From Candidatus Latescibacterota bacterium (GTDB taxonomy: Bacteria; Latescibacterota; UBA2968), in NCBI GenBank assembly GCA_965198115.1, contig OZ240241.1, positions 4,576,001 to 4,640,000 of the forward strand: a stretch of DNA of 64,000 nucleotides, given 5' to 3'. The notes below the pieces were generated by a model, which ran no database searches, was not told the origin of the DNA, and saw nothing but the letters and a program-made list of their open reading frames with translations. Of the stretch, positions 5,217 through 52,520 are shown piece by piece (positions within the stretch are counted from its first letter, which is position 1; each line of letters opens with the position of its first letter). The position numbers were made by a program, and so were the translations under genes.

Positions 5217-5735
5217 GACCGGTCCTCCAACGTCGGAACCACAGGAAAGGTTAGACTATGACGTCTCATCCGTCTCCGGATCACATCATGCAAATCGGAT
5301 TGGGGTTTTGGGGGTCGAAGACCCTCCTCAGCGCCGTTGAAATGGAACTGTTCACAGTGCTCGGAGAAGGGGCCGAAGATCTCGAGAGCGTTCAGAATCG
5401 CCTCGGCTTGCATCCGCGAGCCTCGCGTGATTTCCTCGACGCCCTCGTCTCCTTGGGCTTTCTCCAGCGCGTGGATGGCAAGTACGGGAACACCCTGGAG
5501 ACGGATATTTTCTTGAATAAACGGAAGCCTTCCTACATCGGTGGAATGCTCGAGATGGCTAACCATCGACTATACCGATTCTGGGGCGGCCTCTCCGATG
5601 CGCTGCGGACGGGAGAGTTGCAAAACGAGGCAAAGGGTGGGGGCGAGTCGTTCTTCGCAACGCTGTATGCAGACCCTGCGCGACTCAAGGAATTCCTCGC
5701 TGCAATGACGGGAATCAGCCACGGTGCCAACCTGG

Positions 5736-6500
5736 TGTGACGCCTTGCGATAATTCTCCGCCCGGCTTAAGCTATTCGCAGAATAGGCAGAATCGTTTCA
5801 ATACGGTTAACAGTGGAGACCGTTCCCTAATGAGTTGAGGGTCACCTAAGATCTGGCGGCCATACGACATAGTGCCATAGGAGTACTTACAAGGCGCAAC
5901 GGCCAAAAGCGGTTGTCGGACCTACGCCTGATGTCCCTTTCTTTACGCGAACGCGTTTGGCACATTCCGGGGGATCGGGACGCGAAACGCTCTCGACCTC
6001 CGACGGGTCCGCCATCGGCAGCACCGCCAGGGAGACGGCCGATTTTCTACCCCGCTTCGCCATTTTCGGGAAGCACCTTCAAAGCCGCCTTGTCGACAGA
6101 CGCAAGCTCTTGTTTTTGAACTGGTTTAAGTGTTTCCGACACCTGAAAAACCCCCCTTTCGTCGACAACGGCCGCGATGCGCCAGTCCGGGACTGAAATT
6201 AGGACGGATTAGCAAAAGAAACGGGACATGACCGGTCTCCGGTCGGACGGCCACAGGTTTTCCGCACCCCCCTATGCCCGCTGGGACCTGGCCTGGCCAC
6301 GTCTTGAGCCTAATCGGTCGAAACGCGCTATTTTCGCGGTTCGAGAGCCTATTTCTCGGGCGTGTGGGAAAATGAAAAGGGCGCGGTCTACATCGGAACG
6401 CCCAGAGAGTTCATCCCCCTTATCTCCGGGTCGTCAGTTCTTGGTGCGTGAGAATGCGAATAGCGGTAATCTGGGCGGGAATCTATCGTAAGCCGTAACA
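5736..6500. mobile_element. Non-autonomous MITE-like element, copy 1 (765 bp), carrying phage cos-like sequences and a terS 5' fragment
   Basis: Ends TGTGACG...CGTAACA; ~45-bp imperfect TIR; 7-bp target duplication AACCTGG (5729-5735 and 6501-6507); second copy at 36930-37746; no transposase ORF. Confidence 0.9.
5887..6063 (-). pseudogene. 5' fragment resembling a P27/HK97-type phage terminase small subunit
   Basis: MAKRGRKSAVSLAVLPMADPSEVESVSRPDPPE resembles TerS N-termini (MxxRGRKSAxxLxV...RPxPP), then degenerates; assigned by motif recall, no search run. Confidence 0.55.
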
Positions 6501-7228
6501 AACCTGGCGATCGCAGAGAAGCTCTCCTGGGACGAATACAAGACCTTTGTCGATGTGGGAACAGCACAGGGCGATCTCGCGACACAGGTCGCCCTCGCCC
6601 ATCCCCATCTGACTGGCCAGGGCTTCGACTTGCCCGAAGTCGCCCCTGTTTTCGAAGCGTATGTCGAAGAAAACGGCCTCACGGGCAGACTGACGTTTTC
6701 AGGAGGGAGCTTCTTCGACGTCCCGCTGCCAGAAGCCGATGTCGTGATGATGGGCCACATCCTCCACGACTGGAACCTCGATCAGAAGAGAATGCTCATC
6801 CAGAAAGCCTACAACGCCCTACCAGAAGGGGGCGCGTTCATCGTCTACGAATCCATCATCGACGACGACCGATCCCAAAACACGTTCGGTCTGCTGATGA
6901 GTCTGAATATGCTGATCGAAACCGAGGGAGGGTTCGACTACACGGGTGCGGATTGTCAGGGCTGGATGGAAGAAGCGGGCTTCAAACAGTCACGCGTGGA
7001 ACACCTCGTCGGCCCGGACTCGATGGTGGTCGGCATCAAGTAGGACGACACTGGCAAAGAGCGTCGGAGAGGACCCGTGGATGATCTCACGGGATGACGC
7101 ATCCAAAAGTGGCCCCGGGACCACTTTTCAGACCAGCCAGGCGAGCGGGTCTTGGATTCCGGTCCCGATCGGTTATTATGGGACCTCCATCGGGGTCCTG
7201 TTTTTCGTGTCTGGAAAGGAATGTCGTC

Positions 7229-27445: not shown

Positions 27446-28375
27446 TGCACGCTTGGCGACCTTGTCGAGCACGTTGAGGATCTTGTGGTTCCAGCACCGT
27501 TGTTGCCGGCTCTCTGGCCAGACCTGATCAACGGCCGCCCAGATGCCCATATTCCCGTCCGCGGCGATCAGGACAGGATGTTCGAGCCCGCGATCCCGGA
27601 GATCCCGTAGCACCGTGAGCCAGGATTCTGTAGACTCTCGATAACCGGGTTCTATCGCCAGGATCTCCTTGCTGCCGTCGCTCATCGCGCCGATCACGAC
27701 CAGCAGACACGCCTTCTCGCGCTCGAGCCCGGCTTTGACGTAGATGCCATCAGCCCAGGCGTAGACCAGTTCGCGATTATCCAGACGCCTTTCTTTCCAG
27801 TCCTGGAAGTCGACCTCCCACTTCCCTCGAAGACGAGCGATCGAGGTCGGCGAAAGCGGCGCGCCATCACCGAGCAGCGCACGCAAAGACAACTCGAAGT
27901 CGCCCTGGGAGAGACCGTGGAGATAAAGGTCGGGAAGCAGATCTCCAATGGCCCTGGTTCTCCGGGCGAACAGGGGGAGGATGCGGCTTTCAAACCGCTC
28001 TTCCAGACCACGAACCCGGGGACGCCGGACCTTGATCGTTCCGCAGCTCGTCGAGAGACGCCGGGGCTTGCCGTAGCCGTTCCTGTAGCCCCTGGAGCTA
28101 TCGACCTCGGCTCGGCGCTCATACCACGACCGGCCCAAGAACGCGGTCGCCTCCTCCTCCAGAATGGACTGGAACCGGCCCTGGATCTCTTCACGGATCC
28201 AATCGTCAACCGTCTCCCACGTCGGCATGGACTTCAATGGGGCTCTATGCGTATGTTCCTTCATGGCGATCCTCCTTCCCAACCGGGCCTCTCACCCGGT
28301 TTTGTGTGAATCAACTATCTCACGGGAAGGGTAGGGTCGCCCTTTCTCTTTTTCCACACCTTTTGATTATAGCTC
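27446..28375 (-). mobile_element. IS256 family element, copy A (3'-truncated)
   Basis: IRL GAGCTATAATCAAAAGGTGTGG at 28375; near-identical to 30641-32014 up to ...AAGCGTGCA. Confidence 0.92.
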
Positions 28376-28803
28376 TTTGGATCGTTGTCGACTGTCATAG
28401 AAGGACCAAAGGTCATTGAGATCGTCGGTTGAGGTGCGAGAACGGCCTAAATTAGGAGGTGTTCCGTCGTTCTACAATGGAGAATGTCTCTGTATCCACC
28501 TATCCACGCCTCGCGGATCAACCAGAGCAACCGACAACGACGTGTCGGCTACCGTGACCCGAAAACCTGCAGACAGCCGGACAATCCATCGGCCGTCCAC
28601 GGTCGATGGTCGGAAGTAGAGATTTCTCAAAACCCTACCCGAACGAAGATCCAAAACCATCTGACTGGTTTCCCCCCTTGACATCGAGACCGAAAAAGCA
28701 TTGATTAATATCGATGCAAAGGCTCGGGCTGCGTGCATAAACAATAGTAAATTAGCCAGTTATCCTATTTCCGCCCGGGCGAAACAGAAAGGACCCTCAG
28801 CAG

Positions 28804-30640: not shown

Positions 30641-32014
30641 GAGCTATAATCAAAAGGTGTGGAAAAAGAGAAAGGGCGACCCTACCCTTCCCGTGAGATA
30701 GTTGATTCACACAAAACCGGGTGAGAGGCCCGGTTGGGAAGGAGGATCGCCATGAAGGAACATACGCATAGAGCCCCATTGAAGTCCATGCCGACGTGGG
30801 AGACGGTTGACGATTGGATCCGTGAAGAGATCCAGGGCCGGTTCCAGTCCATTCTGGAGGAGGAGGCGACCGCGTTCTTGGGCCGGTCGTGGTATGAGCG
30901 CCGAGCCGAGGTCGATAGCTCCAGGGGCTACAGGAACGGCTACGGCAAGCCCCGGCGTCTCTCGACGAGCTGCGGAACGATCAAGGTCCGGCGTCCCCGG
31001 GTTCGTGGTCTGGAAGAGCGGTTTGAAAGCCGCATCCTCCCCCTGTTCGCCCGGAGAACCAGGGCCATTGGAGATCTGCTTCCCGACCTTTATCTCCACG
31101 GTCTCTCCCAGGGCGACTTCGAGTTGTCTTTGCGTGCGCTGCTCGGTGATGGCGCGCCGCTTTCGCCGACCTCGATCGCTCGTCTTCGAGGGAAGTGGGA
31201 GGTCGACTTCCAGGACTGGAAAGAAAGGCGTCTGGATAATCGCGAACTGGTCTACGCCTGGGCTGATGGCATCTACGTCAAAGCCGGGCTCGAGCGCGAG
31301 AAGGCGTGTCTGCTGGTCGTGATCGGCGCGATGAGCGACGGCAGCAAGGAGATCCTGGCGATAGAACCCGGTTATCGAGAGTCTACAGAATCCTGGCTCA
31401 CGGTGCTCCGGGATCTCCGGGATCGCGGGCTCGAACATCCTGTCCTGATCGCCGCGGACGGGAATATGGGCATCTGGGCGGCCGTTGATCAGGTCTGGCC
31501 AGAGAGCCGGCAACAACGGTGCTGGAACCACAAGATCCTCAACGTGCTCGACAAGGTCGCCAAGCGTGCACAGGCTGAAGCCCGCGCACTGCTCGTCCAG
31601 ATCCCCTATGCCGGCACGAAAAAGGAGGCCGAGAAGCTCCGGAAACGCTTTGCCGCACGGTATCGCTCACAGTTCCCTGCCGCCGTGGAGACGCTCGAAA
31701 GAGACTGGGATCGGATGGTCACGTTCTACGACTTCCCGAAGGAACACTGGAAACACCTGAGAACCACGAACGTCGTCGAGAGCCCCTTTGCTTCCGTTCG
31801 GCTTCGCACAAACGCCGCCAGGCGATTCAAGAAAGTCAGGAACGCCACGACTCTCATCTGGCGTACGCTCAAGGTCGCAGAGAGCCGATTCAGGAAACTC
31901 ACCGCGCCACACTTGCTACAACAAGTCTACGATCAGAAACACTCAACCGAACCGCAGGTCGAAGCCGGGAAGATGGCCGCCTGATTTCTTTTACACACCT
32001 ATTGACCTGAGCTC
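30641..32014 (+). mobile_element. IS256 family element, copy B (1374 bp, complete)
   Basis: IRL GAGCTATAATCAAAAGGTGTG, IRR ...CACACCTATTGACCTGAGCTC, 8-bp TSD CAGTCTTG. Confidence 0.95.
30752..31984 (+). CDS. IS256 family transposase
   Basis: YRNGY, WADG, ADG, QRCWNH, RTTNVVES; ATG after GGAGGA. Confidence 0.95.
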   Translation: MKEHTHRAPLKSMPTWETVDDWIREEIQGRFQSILEEEATAFLGRSWYERRAEVDSSRGYRNGYGKPRRLSTSCGTIKVRRPRVRGLEERFESRILPLFARRTRAIGDLLPDLYLHGLSQGDFELSLRALLGDGAPLSPTSIARLRGKWEVDFQDWKERRLDNRELVYAWADGIYVKAGLEREKACLLVVIGAMSDGSKEILAIEPGYRESTESWLTVLRDLRDRGLEHPVLIAADGNMGIWAAVDQVWPESRQQRCWNHKILNVLDKVAKRAQAEARALLVQIPYAGTKKEAEKLRKRFAARYRSQFPAAVETLERDWDRMVTFYDFPKEHWKHLRTTNVVESPFASVRLRTNAARRFKKVRNATTLIWRTLKVAESRFRKLTAPHLLQQVYDQKHSTEPQVEAGKMAA

Positions 32015-32309
32015 CAGTCTTGCCGGGATGAGCGTGAAGGATATTCAGCTCGTACTCAGATCAGTCGAGCAGGAGGATCTCGCACTTGCGCTGCGCGCAG
32101 CCGGGGAGGATACGAAAGAGGCCGTGTTTTCCGCGATGTCCGAGCGAGCGGTTTCCGCACTCAAGGAGGACATGGAATTCCAGGGGCCCACCCGAATGAG
32201 CGAGGCGGAGGAAGCCCAGATCCGGATCAGCCAGGTCATTCGCGAGCTGGAGGCGAACGGCTAGGTGACGGTCGCGAGAGGCCCTGCTGGTGATTACATC
32301 TGAAAGCGA

Positions 32310-34004: not shown

Positions 34005-35378
34005 GAGCTATAATCAAAAGGTGTGGAAAAAGAGAAAGGGCGACCCTACCCTTCCCGTGAGATAGTTGATTCACACAAAACCGGGTGAGAGGCCCGGTTG
34101 GGAAGGAGGATCGCCGTGAAGGAACATACGCATAGAGCCCCATTGAAGTCCATGCCGACGTGGGAGACGGTTGACGATTGGATCCGTGAAGAGATCCAGG
34201 GCCGGTTCCAGTCCATTCTGGAGGAGGAGGCGACCGCGTTCTTGGGCCGGTCGTGGTATGAGCGCCGAGCCGAGGTCGATAGCTCCAGGGGCTACAGGAA
34301 CGGCTACGGCAAGCCCCGGCGTCTCTCGACGAGCTGCGGAACGATCAAGGTCCGGCGTCCCCGGGTTCGTGGTCTGGAAGAGCGGTTTGAAAGCCGCATC
34401 CTCCCCCTGTTCGCCCGGAGAACCAGGGCCATTGGAGATCTGCTTCCCGACCTTTATCTCCACGGTCTCTCCCAGGGCGACTTCGAGTTGTCTTTGCGTG
34501 CGCTGCTCGGTGATGGCGCGCCGCTTTCGCCGACCTCGATCGCTCGTCTTCGAGGGAAGTGGGAGGTCGACTTCCAGGACTGGAAAGAAAGGCGTCTGGA
34601 TAATCGCGAACTGGTCTACGCCTGGGCTGATGGCATCTACGTCAAAGCCGGGCTCGAGCGCGAGAAGGCGTGTCTGCTGGTCGTGATCGGCGCGATGAGC
34701 GACGGCAGCAAGGAGATCCTGGCGATAGAACCCGGTTATCGAGAGTCTACAGAATCCTGGCTCACGGTGCTCCGGGATCTCCGGGATCGCGGGCTCGAAC
34801 ATCCTGTCCTGATCGCCGCGGACGGGAATATGGGCATCTGGGCGGCCGTTGATCAGGTCTGGCCAGAGAGCCGGCAACAACGGTGCTGGAACCACAAGAT
34901 CCTCAACGTGCTCGACAAGGTCGCCAAGCGTGCACAGGCTGAAGCCCGCGCACTGCTCGTCCAGATCCCCTATGCCGGCACGAAAAAGGAGGCCGAGAAG
35001 CTCCGGAAACGCTTTGCCGCACGGTATCGCTCACAGTTCCCTGCCGCCGTGGAGACGCTCGAAAGAGACTGGGATCGGATGGTCACGTTCTACGACTTCC
35101 CGAAGGAACACTGGAAACACCTGAGAACCACGAACGTCGTCGAGAGCCCCTTTGCTTCCGTTCGGCTTCGCACAAACGCCGCCAGGCGATTCAAGAAAGT
35201 CAGGAACGCCACGGCTCTCATCTGGCGTACGCTCAAGGTCGCAGAGAGCCGATTCAGGAAACTCACCGCGCCACACTTGCTACAACAAGTCTACGATCAG
35301 AAACACTCAACCGGACCGCAGGTCGAAGCCGGGAAGATGGCCGCCTGATTTCTTTTACACACCTATTGACCTGAGCTC
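34005..35378 (+). mobile_element. IS256 family element, copy C (1374 bp, complete)
   Basis: Same IRs as copy B; 8-bp TSD GAGACACC. Confidence 0.95.
34116..35348 (+). CDS. IS256 family transposase
   Basis: Near-identical to 30752-31984; GTG start. Confidence 0.93.
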   Translation: MKEHTHRAPLKSMPTWETVDDWIREEIQGRFQSILEEEATAFLGRSWYERRAEVDSSRGYRNGYGKPRRLSTSCGTIKVRRPRVRGLEERFESRILPLFARRTRAIGDLLPDLYLHGLSQGDFELSLRALLGDGAPLSPTSIARLRGKWEVDFQDWKERRLDNRELVYAWADGIYVKAGLEREKACLLVVIGAMSDGSKEILAIEPGYRESTESWLTVLRDLRDRGLEHPVLIAADGNMGIWAAVDQVWPESRQQRCWNHKILNVLDKVAKRAQAEARALLVQIPYAGTKKEAEKLRKRFAARYRSQFPAAVETLERDWDRMVTFYDFPKEHWKHLRTTNVVESPFASVRLRTNAARRFKKVRNATALIWRTLKVAESRFRKLTAPHLLQQVYDQKHSTGPQVEAGKMAA

Positions 35379-35744
35379 GAGACACCAGCTTCGCTTCGTC
35401 GATCAGCGACAGCCAGGCTCCTGACTCTCGGAGTTCTTTAAGGCAGATGCTCAGTTTATGAATGAAGTCTTTCCGGCTTTCGGCGGCTCTCGCCTCCTCG
35501 TAATTCGCCAGTGGTGACGTTCCACATCGGACGAGTTGGCCTGCGATCTGCCGCCCGAAACGAGAGTCGGTAAGATCATCGATCAGGGTACCTATTCTGG
35601 CCGCAGACTTCAGTAACCGCTCTGATAGTTCCTCTGGTGTCATACAGTCTCCTATTTATTGAGGTTCCACTGTTGCGGCTACCACGGGCAAAACCCTTGC
35701 CAGCAATTTCCTAATACGGTGATTCCCTAATTTCATAATCCTCA

Positions 35745-36929: not shown

Positions 36930-37746
36930 TGTGACGCCTTGCGATAATTCTCCGCCCAGCTTAAGCTATTCGCAGAATAGGCAGAATCGTTTCAATACGG
37001 TTAACAGTGGAGACCGTTCCCTAATTGAGTTGAGGGTCGCCTAAGATCTGGCGGCCATGCGACATAGTGCCATAGGAGTACTTACAAGGCGCAACTGCCA
37101 AAAGCGGTTGTCGGACCTACGCCTGATGTCCCTTTCGCGAACGCGTTTGGCACATTCCGGGGGATCGGGACGCGAAACGCTCTCGACCTCCGACGGGTCC
37201 ACGATTGGCAACACCGCCAGGGAGACGGCCGATTTTCTACCCCGCTTCGCCATTTTCAGGCCATTCCGTCGAACCCAAGTTGTCGACTAGCCCAAGTTCT
37301 TGATTTTGAACGCGTTTAAGCGAAAAAGGCACCGAAAAACCCCCTCCTCGTCGACAACGGCCGCCGGAACGCGACCGGACTTGAAATTAGGACGGATTAG
37401 CAAAAGAAACGGTCCACTACAGGTGTCCAAAAGAGAGCTGACCGTTTCCACCCCCCCTACCCCCCTGGTGCGGGCCTCGGGCCAGCGACGCGCCCAGGGC
37501 CAACACCGCGCAACCCCCCTATGCCCACTGGGACCTGGCCTGGCCACGTCTTGAGCCCAATCGGTCGAAACGCGCTATTTTCGCGGTTCGAGAGCCTATT
37601 TCTCGCGCGTGTGGGAAAATGAAAAGGGCGCGGTCTACATCGGAACGCCCAGAGAGTTCATCCTCCCTTATCTCCGGTCGTCAGTTCTTGGTGCGTGAGA
37701 ATGCGAATAGCGTAATCTGGGCGGGAATCTATCGTAAGCCGTAACA
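36930..37746. mobile_element. Non-autonomous MITE-like element, copy 2 (817 bp), with cos-like cargo
   Basis: Same TGTGACG...CGTAACA ends and near-identical arms as 5736-6500; diverged centre; only GTGG (4 bp) is repeated at the flanks. Confidence 0.9.
37041..37253 (-). pseudogene. 5' fragment resembling a phage terminase small subunit
   Basis: MAKRGRKSAVSLAVLPIVDPSEVESVSRPDPPE; the tail differs from copy 1 because of a small indel. Confidence 0.55.
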
Positions 37747-38915: not shown

Positions 38916-39419
38916 GAACGCCGGCGAACCTACCAGGGGCCGAGCGTCGTCGGGCGTGGCAATCGACGCGGATTGCAATCTTGTCTGAGGCTGGCCGGGA
39001 CCAGATGTGCCGGATCGGGGAATCCTACTCGCTGGGGCGCTGGACGCTCACGGCCGGGCAGTCTGGCCGACGCGGTCTTGAACGATCTGGCCTCGGGCGT
39101 GCTGCCCGGCGGATCGACGGTTCCACCAATTTAATTATATAATTTGTTGATAAATAAGCTTCTCGATCCCGACCCAGGGCCAGCACATTTTCTGTTTACA
39201 CAGGAAAGGCGTTCCCCTCATTTTTATCGCCATTCTTGAACGGAATGAACGGGACCAGGCAGTCCGCTTATTCATAGTCCTACTAGATTCCAAGATGTTT
39301 AATAATGTGTTTAACTGTCTGTTTGTAAATTACTTGTGGTATATTGGCATCCCTGTGAAGTCTTGTATATTCCAGGACTGAAAGGGTGATCAGTGGTGTG
39401 ATCATAAGAGGGTGACCAA

Positions 39420-42801: not shown

Positions 42802-44178
42802 GAGGTCGAGTCAAGAGGTGTGTAAATAGATCAGGCGGCCAGCTTCTTCCCGGAGTCGATTGTGGTCATAGTTTGGTTGTGCTGTGCATAAACAACGTGT
42901 AACAGATGGGGTGCATTGAGTCGCCGGAAGCGTTTCTCGGCGACCATCAGTGTTCGCCAGATGAGAGCGCTTGCCGAGACGACCTTCTTGTAGCGTTTGG
43001 CGGCGTTGGTTCGTAACCGCACGGATGCAAAGGGGCTCTCGACGATGTTGGTCGTTCTCAGGTGGCGCCAGTGTTCTTCTGGGAAATCGAAGAAGGTGAG
43101 CATCCTATCCCAATCCCGTTCGAGTGTTGCCACCGCCTTCGGGAACTCGTTGCGATATCGTGCGACGAACTGCTTGCGCAGCTTCTCCGCATCCTGACGC
43201 GTGCTGGCATAGGGAATCTGGACGAGCAGTGCACGAGCTTGAGGCTGCTGACGTTTGTGGATCTGGTCCGGGACGTTGAGAATCTTGTGGTTCCAGCACC
43301 GCTGCTGACGGGTGTGCGGCCAGACCTGATCGACGGCAGACCAGATGCCCATATTGCCATCGGCCGCCATCAGAATGGGGTGATCCAAGCCGCGATCCCG
43401 TAGGTCTCTAAGGACAGCCAGCCAGGACTCGGTCGACTCGCGATACCCAGGCACCAGGCCCAGAACCTCTTTGCGGCCGTCACTCATGGCGCCGATCACG
43501 ACAAGCAGACACGCCTTATCTTTCTCAAGTCCGGCTTTGACGTAGATCCCATCGGCCCAGGCATACACGAGCTCACGATCGTCCAGGCGTCGTTCCTGCC
43601 AGGTCTGGTAATCAACCTCCCATTGACCGCGGAGGCGAGCAATCGACGAGGGGGAGAGCGGAGCCCCATCACCGAGAAGCCCTCGCAGGGCCAACTCGAA
43701 GTCGCCCTGAGACAGACCGTGGAGATAGAGCTCCGGGAGCAGTTCCCCCACCTCTCTCGTGCGCCGAGCGAACAACGGCAGAATCCTGCTCTCGAAGCGC
43801 TCCTCCAAACCGCGAACACGGGGCCGCTTGATCTGGATCGTGCCGCAAGAGGTCGACAATCGCCGCAGCTTCCCATAGCCGTTGCGATAACCGGATCTTG
43901 CATCTACGGCTTCTTTGCGCTCATACCACCCGCGTCCGAGGAACTGGGTCACTTCCTCCTCAACGATGGACTGAATGCGAACCTCGATTTCCTTACGCAA
44001 CCACCCCTCAAGGGTTTCCCACGTCGGCATGGACAACGAGGGGGACTTCGACTTATGTTTTCCCACGGCGATCCTCCTTCCCACCGGGCCTGTGAACCCG
44101 GTATTTCGTGGATATTGTTATCTCACGGGAAGTGTAGGGTCGCCTTTTCTATTTTTCCACACCTATTGATTGTAGCTC
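42802..44178 (-). mobile_element. IS256 family element related to copies A-D but diverged; full-length transposase ORF 42831-44084; no TSD
   Basis: IRL GAGCTACAATCAATAGGTGTGG, IRR GAGGTCGAGTCAAGAGGTGTG; DDE and CxxH motifs. Confidence 0.92.
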
Positions 44179-44179
44179 T

Positions 44180-45592
44180 ATCTCTCGAATCGGTCTGCAC
44201 TCTTCGCCTTCCAACGGCCGCGGCATCGATGATCGCGGCAACCCGATCGATTCGCTCGTCATCGAAAACTGCAGCTTCTACAACCTGACAGCCGACATTC
44301 TGCGCGACGGCGGTGGCGGTATCATCAACTATGCCGACGTGAATCACAACACGTTCGTCAACATTGGCCAGCACGGCCTGAACTTCGGCGAAGTGATTAC
44401 TGCCCACGTTACGAACAACCTGTTCATGAACGTCGGCTACCTCGGCTCGACTACCGCCAACGAAGAGTTGGATCCCGATGAGGACGGTCGCGTGATCATC
44501 GCCGATTCGCTCGGTATCGACATCACCGCCGACCAGGTTCTGAACGTCCGCAATAACAATTTTTACATCGACCCTACGATCGAAGCGAGCCAACCGGACT
44601 CCGTCCTCAGTGCGACCGAACTGGGCAAGTATAGCCTGCACGCCGCCGTGTTGGTCGAAGCTTCCGGAACAGACGCGACGAACATCTCCGAAGCCATCAC
44701 CTTCGTGAACGGGCCGGCGGATCCGACCAGTCTGATGCTGGCGTATTTCATGGATCCGGCTACCGCTCCAAGTTGGGACAACACTGGAGCACCTTACGAC
44801 TTCCTCTACACGGGGGGTGGATCCGCCACTGCCTCCACGGGAATGCAGCCCCTCGGCGATCTCAGCTGGCATATGCTCGAAATCGTTGACAGCGACCGCA
44901 CGACACCGCTCGTCGACGCGGATGACGGTGCAATTTCGTTGCCAGAGGGAGACGAAGGTCCCGCGGGCGTCGACCTCGACACCGCCAGCGGCAACCAGAG
45001 CAAACACATCACGGATAGCGTTCCCGCCGTGGGCGACCAGGTCACGGTGGACATCTTCGTGACCGAGGGCGCGTCCGGCCAGACCGGCTATCAGGCGACA
45101 TTGACGTGGGACCCGACGGCACTTTCGCTCACGTCGTATGCGTCCACCGACGTTTTCACTGGCGGCCTCAACCTCCCCGTGGAGACTGAGGGATCCTACA
45201 CCGCTGGCGTCGCTATCCTGGGTGGAGCGGCAAGCGCCGATGCAGGAAGCATCGGCCTGGCAACCTTCACGGTGCTCGACGGATTCAGCGAAGCCACCGT
45301 GGTGACGCTCACGGTCGTTTCGCTCGAAACCCTCGGATCGGCTAATGTGCTCGACATCGGCCCCGGCGCCGCCTACGTCGTCATCGGCAGTGTCGGTGAG
45401 ACGCCCGCGGTTGTGAAATCTGCGGACCTCGACGACACACCGGGTGTCGGTTTCGGCGACTTCATCATCTTCGCGGGTGGCTTCAACACGGCTGCCGGCG
45501 ATGAGGGTTTTGACGATCGGCTGGACCTGGATGGGGACGGCACGGTAGGATTCGGTGACTTTCTCCTCTTTGCGGCCGCATTCTCAGCGTAG
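44180..45592 (+). pseudogene. 5'-truncated secreted protein: beta-helix-like repeats, cohesin-like domain, dockerin/EF-hand C-terminus
   Basis: IENCSFYN, HNTFVN, TNNLFMN; VTVDIFV..TGYQATLTWDPTAL; ADLDDTPGVGFGDF..DLDGDGTVGFGDFL; frame open from the IS256 boundary. Confidence 0.72.
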
Positions 45593-50506: not shown

Positions 50507-52520
50507 TCATGACCTCCGGCAAAGCCGGAGGCTTGAAAACTTGTGAACCGCTCAAAGCGGTTGGAAACCAAGCGCCACCTAAAGGTGGCGATTACCTGAA
50601 AATGTTGAGCTGGTCGAGACGCCGGTCCTCCCGCTCCTGGTTCTGGATATACTCCCGAACCGTCTGTTCATCCTTGCCAACGGTGGAGACCCAGTAGCCT
50701 CTTGCCCAGAAATGCTGCCCGGTGAAGTTCGACCTGCGTCCCAGATAGTTCCGAGCAATGTGAATCGCACTCTTTCCTTTGATGAACCCTACCGTCTGAG
50801 CTACTGAGTGCTTCGGCGGGATCGAAAGAGCTATAATCAAAAGGTGTGGAAAAAGAGAAAGGGCGACCCTACCCTTCCCGTGAGATAGTTGATTCACACA
50901 AAACCGGGTGAGAGGCCCGGTTGGGAAGGAGGATCGCCATGAAGGAACATACGCATAGAGCCCCATTGAAGTCCATGCCGACGTGGGAGACGGTTGACGA
51001 TTGGATCCGTGAAGAGATCCAGGGCCGGTTCCAGTCCATTCTGGAGGAGGAGGCGACCGCGTTCTTGGGCCGGTCGTGGTATGAGCGCCGAGCCGAGGTC
51101 GATAGCTCCAGGGGCTACAGGAACGGCTACGGCAAGCCCCGGCGTCTCTCGACGAGCTGCGGAACGATCAAGGTCCGGCGTCCCCGGGTTCGTGGTCTGG
51201 AAGAGCGGTTTGAAAGCCGCATCCTCCCCCTGTTCGCCCGGAGAACCAGGGCCATTGGAGATCTGCTTCCCGACCTTTATCTCCACGGTCTCTCCCAGGG
51301 CGACTTCGAGTTGTCTTTGCGTGCGCTGCTCGGTGATGGCGCGCCGCTTTCGCCGACCTCGATCGCTCGTCTTCGAGGGAAGTGGGAGGTCGACTTCCAG
51401 GACTGGAAAGAAAGGCGTCTGGATAATCGCGAACTGGTCTACGCCTGGGCTGATGGCATCTACGTCAAAGCCGGGCTCGAGCGCGAGAAGGCGTGTCTGC
51501 TGGTCGTGATCGGCGCGATGAGCGACGGCAGCAAGGAGATCCTGGCGATAGAACCCGGTTATCGAGAGTCTACAGAATCCTGGCTCACGGTGCTCCGGGA
51601 TCTCCGGGATCGCGGGCTCGAACATCCTGTCCTGATCGCCGCGGACGGGAATATGGGCATCTGGGCGGCCGTTGATCAGGTCTGGCCAGAGAGCCGGCAA
51701 CAACGGTGCTGGAACCACAAGATCCTCAACGTGCTCGACAAGGTCGCCAAGCGTGCACAGGCTGAAGCCCGCGCACTGCTCGTCCAGATCCCCTATGCCG
51801 GCACGAAAAAGGAGGCCGAGAAGCTCCGGAAACGCTTTGCCGCACGGTATCGCTCACAGTTCCCTGCCGCCGTGGAGACGCTCGAAAGAGACTGGGATCG
51901 GATGGTCACGTTCTACGACTTCCGAAGGAACACTGGAAACACCTGAGAACCACGAACGTCGTCGAGAGCCCCTTTGCTTCCGTTCGGCTTCGCACAAACG
52001 CCGCCAGGCGATTCAAGAAAGTCAGGAACGCCACGGCTCTCATCTGGCGTACGCTCAAGGTCGCAGAGAGCCGATTCAGGAAACTCACCGCGCCACACTT
52101 GCTACAACAAGTCTACGATCAGAAACACTCAACCGAACCGCAGGTCGAAGCCGGGAAGATGGCCGCCTGATTTCTTTTACACACCTATTGACCTGAGCTC
52201 GATCGAAATCAGCATGTGCACATGGTCGGATCGCAGGTGACCCTCTTCCACACGGCATTCCTTCTGTGCGGCCAGATCCCGAATCACCTCGCCCAGATAG
52301 CGACGAATTTCACCATACAACACTTTTCTACGATACTTCCGAACCCAAACAACGTCATACTTGCACTCCCAAACCGTGTGACGTAGACTCCTTACGTTGT
52401 TCATTAGAGAGCCTTCCTTCCGTGTGCTTTGAGCGGTCCACGGCAAGGGAGGCTCTTACATATTTCTGGAACTGTCAAACTCTGGGAGTCTCCCCGGCAG
52501 AGCCGGGGGCTTACCAAGGT
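50506..52520 (-). mobile_element. tnpA: IS200/IS605 family element whose tnpA is split by IS256 copy D
   Basis: tnpA 52404-50592: SLRHTVWECKY, DHVHMLISI|PPK, GFIKGKS, FWARGY, YIQNQ; end hairpins CCTCCGGC-aaa-GCCGGAGG and CCCCGGC-aga-GCCGGGG. Confidence 0.9.
50828..52200 (+). mobile_element. IS256 family element, copy D (1373 bp; 1-nt deletion frameshift near 51923)
   Basis: Same IRs; 8-bp TSD GATCGAAA. Confidence 0.95.

Follow-up and report, generated by a model that had tools for sequence, protein, structure and literature searches.

Several described systems come close to the DNA reported here. Bacterial MITEs, defined as being moved by a helper transposase (PMC11389934), lack a transposase of their own and have terminal inverted repeats, duplications of fixed length and many near-identical dispersed copies. 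Phage HK97 has a 10-nt 3′ overhang and a TerS site at +15..+29, which starts CTAACCCG at +15 (PMC11331095); a second article gives the overhang as 10 nt in a legend and as 12 nt in its discussion (PMC9410871). Satellites of the cos type (EcCICFT073-like PICIs and PICMI) carry cos but no packaging motor. Two cos sites are present in EcCICFT073, and plasmids can be transferred once they contain a cloned cos site (PMC6739421), while PICMI seems to depend on nothing but a DNA motif (PMC11389934). Cos phages, by assumption, do not carry out generalised transduction, since a chromosome rarely has two cos-like sites spaced by a genome length (PMC6687093). In the parts of the literature that were searched, no MITE carrying cos or terS was described, though an unremarked entry in ISfinder-type lists may exist.

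We analysed a window of 64,000 nucleotides from a Candidatus Latescibacterota bacterium (contig OZ240241.1, positions 4,576,001 to 4,640,000), in which an original prediction had compared two repeats, copy 1 and copy 2. They lie in direct orientation, and both are copies of a small gene-less, non-autonomous transposon of 751–823 bp, bounded by TGT...ACA and 46-bp imperfect inverted repeats (Table 1). The genome (G000; 8.43 Mb in one contig) contains 20 left and 19 right ends, which amount to about 19 copies: 17 are contiguous and 751–823 bp long, one has two insertions inside, and the family further includes a partial copy of the right-hand side and two fragments of the left end. Of the 17 contiguous copies, 11 lie between perfect 7-bp target duplications, as do the interrupted copy and a composite of 11.3 kb with a copy at each end; the 13 cases show 13 different, unrelated target sequences. 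The gene interrupted by copy 1 has a contiguous orthologue, free of element DNA, in a genome of the same genus (G001). At copy 2 only 4 bp are repeated in the flanks, and the loss of the 7-bp duplication is probably due to a neighbouring IS.

Table 1. Features of the two transposon copies (window coordinates)
Feature	Positions	Strand	Remarks
Copy 1 of transposon	5736..6500	.	765 bp, TGT...ACA; inside O-methyltransferase gene
Target duplication AACCTGG, left	5729..5735	+	7 bp; right one at 6501-6507
Left terminal inverted repeat, copy 1	5736..5781	+	partner 6455-6500; 35/47 identical
terS codons 1-34, copy 1	5962..6063	-	frame continues into unrelated sequence to 5887
terS leader, copy 1	6064..6193	-	family-consensus type; two GTCGAC boxes
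31-bp block, copy 1	6194..6224	-	+1..+31 after predicted cos nick; carries CTAATCCG at +13..+20
Predicted 10-nt cohesive end, copy 1	6225..6234	-	CATGTC-type allele; inferred
Left part of core cos, copy 1	6235..6272	-	short type; G-run 6267-6272
Second cos-like site, right arm, copy 1	6384..6419	-	6384-6401 vs resident prophage cos: 17/18 bases
Copy 2 of transposon	36930..37746	.	817 bp; truncates DUF6785 gene
Left terminal inverted repeat, copy 2	36930..36975	+	partner 37701-37746; 36/46 identical
terS codons 1-34, copy 2	37152..37253	-	
Private terS leader, copy 2	37258..37381	-	contains exact IHF-consensus match 37293-37305
31-bp block, copy 2	37382..37412	-	+1..+31; same in 4 other copies, 2-7 differences in other 13 compared
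Predicted cohesive end, copy 2	37413..37422	-	AGTGGA-type allele (5/19 copies); private change at 37421
Long left part of core cos, copy 2	37423..37519	-	G-run 37451-37465, ~50-bp spacer, G-run 37514-37519; common family allele
Second cos-like site, right arm, copy 2	37631..37667	-	

The ORFs within the element are at most 87 aa long and encode no transposase; those scanned against Pfam and PHROGs gave no match at E<0.1. No replication gene, integrase, origin or att site was found in the approximately 800 bp, an Rfam search returned no match at E<=5, and a promoter and terminator scan gave one promoter-like match outside the element end (0.4 expected) and no terminators. The element has the properties of a non-autonomous transposon, apart from a known autonomous partner. 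It differs from MITEs in its size of 750–820 bp, a packaging-region interior with a terS fragment and two cos-like sites, and mosaic copies. Its DNA was found in none of the genomes of 60 relatives (0/60). In other samples, the element or close kin is represented by two ENA proteins 86–92% identical to its terS frame and by contigs of four sequencing runs (X1–X4). The whole chromosome is very rich in IS copies, and the window itself holds copies of two related multi-copy insertion sequences at 27446-28383, 30641-32017, 34005-35381, 42802-44188 and 50820-52202.

A DUF3102 gene and a Mu-like transposase gene form a pair at a distance of 99 bp from one copy, in the composite (G000 1426120-1437467), which also has a sigma-like gene. 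The pair contains the only DUF3102 gene of the genome and its best Mu-like transposase match, and on proximity alone we consider it a candidate helper. Mu-like phages and their deleted derivatives share TG...CA ends with the element, but make duplications of 5–6 bp (PMC8705779) instead of 7 bp and use a headful packaging signal instead of one of cos type, and here the transposase stands outside the single element. Searches for an autonomous partner found only the element's own 39 ends with an end profile in G000, no multi-copy element with these ends at 14 chosen transposase loci, and no exact end match in the genome contigs searched. Homologues of the transposase in relatives belong to Mu-like prophages (G072 8600-30300; G142 contig 8 1643000-1675000), and no similarity to the element ends was found in the related Mu-like prophages of G072, G142 and G163, whose own ends were not placed. 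An origin from IS21 was considered and rejected: the istA remnant near G000 25523 is parted from the element end by the end of another multi-copy IS, and IS21 copies start with a different sequence. The composite also encodes a protein of 1069 aa whose domains include ones resembling RNA polymerase beta and beta-prime. In the window, 1.2 kb from copy 2, a 212-bp remnant (38919-39130) shares 96% identity with the sequence lying downstream of the Mu-like transposase gene.

The short minus-strand frame of the element had been read as the start of terS, and its homologues bear this out. Among 1.84 billion proteins, the first 36 residues have eight homologues at E<=3e-7, five of which match PHROG 12559 (terminase small subunit). 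One longer homologue reaches the terS of PAJU2 and of a Klebsiella phage by tblastn, and its best Atlas matches are small terminases of the Hendrixvirinae/P27 type. The homology ends at codon 34, and the fragment is frameshifted in 3 of 17 copies. A direct scan of the fragment itself against Pfam and PHROG gave nothing under E 0.1; it was found within none of 45 candidate longer proteins, and its homologue in none of 131 other genomes of the class. Scans for related loci with terS homologues confirmed none of 19, 56, 182 and 87 candidates. A search of G000 and 167 other genomes of the phylum (168 in all), whose control was blank too, yielded no full terS of the PHROG 12559 family, which leaves the element with no known cognate helper. 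The right-hand partial copy, with a leader of its own, lies in an island (G000 5976093-5982105) that also carries an integrase-like gene and a terS of another family (phrog_1889).

The core of the element is likely a phage DNA-packaging (cos) signal, as had been proposed. Upstream of terS it reads G-run, about 28 nt, AC, 10 nt and T-tract, and the same order, with a T-rich end, is found at the record ends of HK97, D3 and PAJU2; a matching motif lies between HNH and terS of other phages. HK97 numbering would make the 31-bp block shared by both copies +1..+31, a register obtained by alignment to the phage record ends, and places the predicted cohesive end next to it (Table 1). As in the HK97-type cos of HK97, D3, PAJU2 and KpF5, the G-run, the AC with a predicted 10-nt overhang, the T-tract and a TerS-site-like block are followed directly by a terS, here of the PAJU2/KpF5 family. 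By homology, the interior of the element derives from an HK97-type packaging module. It differs from such a module in that HNH, terL and head genes are absent, terS is broken after codon 34, the leader is about 160 nt long (36–50 nt in D3, HK97 and PAJU2), the ACCG-to-T-tract spacing is 1–2 nt longer than in HK97, D3 and the resident prophage, and the whole sits between transposon ends.

A cos matrix was built from 12 phage cos regions, with anchors set by eye after the motif had been seen. In genome-wide ranking with this matrix, element sites occur nine times in the top 25, and the HNH–terS interval of the resident prophage ranks 9th. Single sites, at 10–27 bits, do not rise above the maxima of genome shuffles (21–23 bits), and 58 non-element sites, counted over both strands, score at least 15 bits; the significance of the cos is therefore local, about 1 in 1000 for the 300 bp upstream of terS. 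An earlier, worse-anchored matrix (9/13 phages anchored) did not separate the element sites from shuffles or background.

The same matrix scan found a second cos-like site, which the original prediction did not have, on the same strand in the right arm. Over the 18 bases that lead up to and include the predicted cut, it agrees with the cos of the resident prophage at 17 positions, in register. Within one mismatch, this 18-base word occurs only in the prophage and 11 copies, and within two mismatches in the prophage, 17 copies and one other place. The site scores 26.8 bits in one copy and about 6–13 bits in 16 others (the copy at 1035930 is below zero in the per-copy list), and in most copies it is 4 bp shorter than the best-scoring version. 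The prophage is the single one of HK97 type in G000 (641601-684468; 42.8 kb), apparently intact and placed between 47-bp repeats. Its cos motif, shared with the element (E 0.0011), lies between HNH and terS, with HNH and terL, both missing from the element, around it. What we take to be a HicAB-like pair is inserted between its HNH and cos. The TerS-site side of the element differs from that of the prophage. Three further cos-like loci, which lack transposon ends and rank 6th, 14th and 17th genome-wide, lie at G000 8.396-8.404 Mb (L001 6847-7031, 10661-10744 and 13225-13448), in an island that has decayed and carries DUF3631, resolvase and ParA genes. The alleles of their cohesive ends parallel the three known from the element.

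The original prediction was that of near-identical arms around an exchanged, diverged core. Between the two copies, the arms are identical at 319 of 327 (36930-37257) and 222 of 233 positions (37514-37746), and the core at 83 of 124 (37258-37381) and, beyond the shared 31-bp block, at 21 of 42 aligned positions (37413-37513). The inverted boxes TTGTCGAC (6090 / 37280) and GTCGACAAC (6161 / 37350) lie at spacings of 71 and 70, and the box position is 27 nt from the minus-strand ATG (6063 / 37253) in both copies. The extra stretch between two C-runs in copy 2, put at about 55 bp, is a 59-column gap in the alignment. The exact match in copy 2 to what we take to be the IHF consensus has one mismatch in copy 1; exact matches number 88 in the genome (0.003 expected per 250 bp) and occur in only 1 of 19 element copies. 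The differences CTG/TTG, CCG/CCA, M/I and A/V in the terS fragment are present as described, but they amount to four adjacent codons, 15–18.

Counting alleles over all copies showed that the exchange is real and that the view from two copies was misleading, since the "diverged core" of copy 2 is mostly the commonest family allele. Its segment 37413-37513 agrees with the copy at G000 6297180 at 99/100 positions, and the long left type is found in 11 of 19 copies. As predicted, the divergence reflects exchange and not uniform decay: among 17 copies, 880 of 1891 site pairs are incompatible by the four-gamete test, with Rm = 15 and p = 0.001 for clustering, and the full length of the element is covered by a scatter of sixteen minimal recombination intervals. 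Recombination at the G-run, too, was seen, in a copy (7512657) with a join between the two G-runs. The single exchanged cassette gave way to at least three parts: the left part, the cohesive-end allele, the TerS-site block and the leader assort independently among the copies and the three non-transposon loci. Read from the alignment rows, the three cohesive-end alleles occur in 7, 7 and 5 copies, and each of the first two is found with the long, the short and the non-transposon left part, from which 6 shared bases separate it. Diversity, computed on the 16 copies other than copy 2 so that the mosaic pattern stands without it, is 0.007–0.009 in the left arm, 0.045 in the right arm, 0.11 in the TerS-site block, 0.29 in the predicted cohesive end and 0.26 to the left of it. 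With one of two identical copies dropped, and with site pairs that are not independent, 12 of 26 close pairs (<=10 columns) spanning the predicted nick are incompatible, compared with 9 of 198 elsewhere. The hot zone is broad, about 40 bp (37383-37424), a second one lies in terS (37203-37210), and the predicted nicks rank only 5th–37th among 97–157 positions.

Only 37258-37381 of the copy 2 core is private, and it is 62–68% identical to the four other loci tested. A contig from another study (X1) matches 37319-37410 with no substitution and one gap and continues past 37410 as the non-transposon left type, which points to a pool of related cos loci outside the family as the source of this leader. 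Leaders from outside occur in 2 of 19 copies. Different phages had been named as the donors, but 50,697 phage records gave 1 and 8 chance matches, none significant; the matching alleles sit instead in sister copies and in the three non-transposon loci of the same chromosome. Plasmids gave 7 chance matches, three core patterns in IMG/VR gave 0 or 1 chance match each (both matches inside unrelated coding sequence), and a metagenome pattern scan gave none.

We consider it fairly probable that the element is a gene-less transposon with likely cos cargo and the start of terS, that its copies differ through an exchange of cos parts likely triggered by terminase, and that the cargo is a passenger. 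A TGT...ACA element making 7-bp target duplications, which has multiplied to about 19 copies, would be moved by a trans-acting DDE transposase, the sole local candidate being the Mu-like one. Its HK97-type module comprises terS codons 1-34, the leader, the TerS-site block, the predicted cohesive end, the G-run and the second cos-like site. Terminase would nick the cos sites, and the ends would be repaired or re-joined against another cos-bearing locus; such nick-linked repair would gather breakpoints and diversity at the cut. The leader of copy 2 would be a tract received from an outside cos locus, with one end near the nick (37410-37412) and the other immediately ahead of the terS start (37258). 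The cargo would probably be a passenger, and any packaging of host DNA a side effect and not a selected function. Ordinary RecA gene conversion among copies 95–99% identical, acting on old satellite cos alleles without terminase, differs from this explanation in the trigger alone, and we regard it as rather unlikely. It would account for the spread of the minimal recombination intervals, and with marker density highest at cos the peak there could reflect donor divergence, but at equal marker distance the excess of incompatible pairs across the nicks persists, and multi-base alleles change flanks across 6–10 shared bases. For the private leader of copy 2 only, an assembly chimera with another strain or element in the sample seems improbable. 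Contigs of X2–X4 depart from copy 2 at 37257 and continue in the common allele (X2 and X3 with its left junction present without difference), no read spanning copy 2 was seen, and G000 is listed with 5.1% contamination. Such contigs collapse many copies, however, and their depth over 37258-37304, 0–2 against 4–13 on the unique flank, is not evidence of absence because contigs drop rare variants; moreover, the private sequence exists in nature, in the X1 contig, and the mosaic pattern does not depend on copy 2.

Unlikely, in our judgement, is a selected packaging hitchhiker, that is, a minimal satellite that transposes within the cell and travels between cells in phage heads, with allele swaps to fit the helper terminase. 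Two same-strand cos-like sites are the two top matrix matches in all 17 contiguous copies (the second below zero in 1035930), the arm site resembles the cos of an intact prophage, three cohesive-end alleles stand at 7, 7 and 5 copies beside the outside leaders, and EcCICFT073 with its two cos sites and PICMI with its motif-only hijacking are precedents (PMC6739421; PMC11389934). Those satellites, however, integrate site-specifically, excise and replicate, whereas the element has unrelated targets and, in its 800 bp, no replication gene, integrase or origin that we could find; it works at most like a cos satellite, yet without integrase, att or replication genes. For a cos phage, a second cos has to lie at a distance of roughly one genome (PMC6687093), and the only near pairs, those of the composite and the window, are 10.6 and 31.2 kb apart, the latter being 73% of the prophage length and neither a clear fit. 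The shortened arm site likewise speaks against this explanation, and the IS-rich genome accounts for the amplification without a function. Selection on the core as a specificity cassette, part of the original prediction, finds no footing in copies that differ by less than 1% in the left arm, are too young for selection to be visible, and in part have a frameshifted terS. Still less can be said for an anti-phage decoy, in which scattered cos copies titrate or misdirect terminase and heads fill with host DNA, and which we judge very improbable: the number of copies, each with two sites, one of them like the resident prophage cos, would suit it, but replicating phage DNA would outnumber them, the TerS-site side is unlike that of the prophage, and the copies disrupt host genes.

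Under the preferred explanation of an exchanged passenger cargo, the copies still provide cos halves and cohesive ends on either side of a predicted cut, in a series of natural alleles that can be tested directly. Provided that the signals are still functional, the element would let a phage package host DNA, and by copying cos sites around the chromosome it would remove the bar to generalised transduction by cos phages; it would also offer a natural way for a MITE to become a phage satellite, a possibility discussed in PMC11389934. A bolder version, in which the transposon holds domesticated cos pairs for two terminase families, with halves swapped at the cut, and turns cos phages into carriers of the host DNA located between copies, appears doubtful. 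Among the ENA proteins, a related terS family (P0003–P0015) shows a common break near residue 86 followed by varying tails on many contigs, a pattern as would be expected of a second mobile element with cos and a truncated terS.
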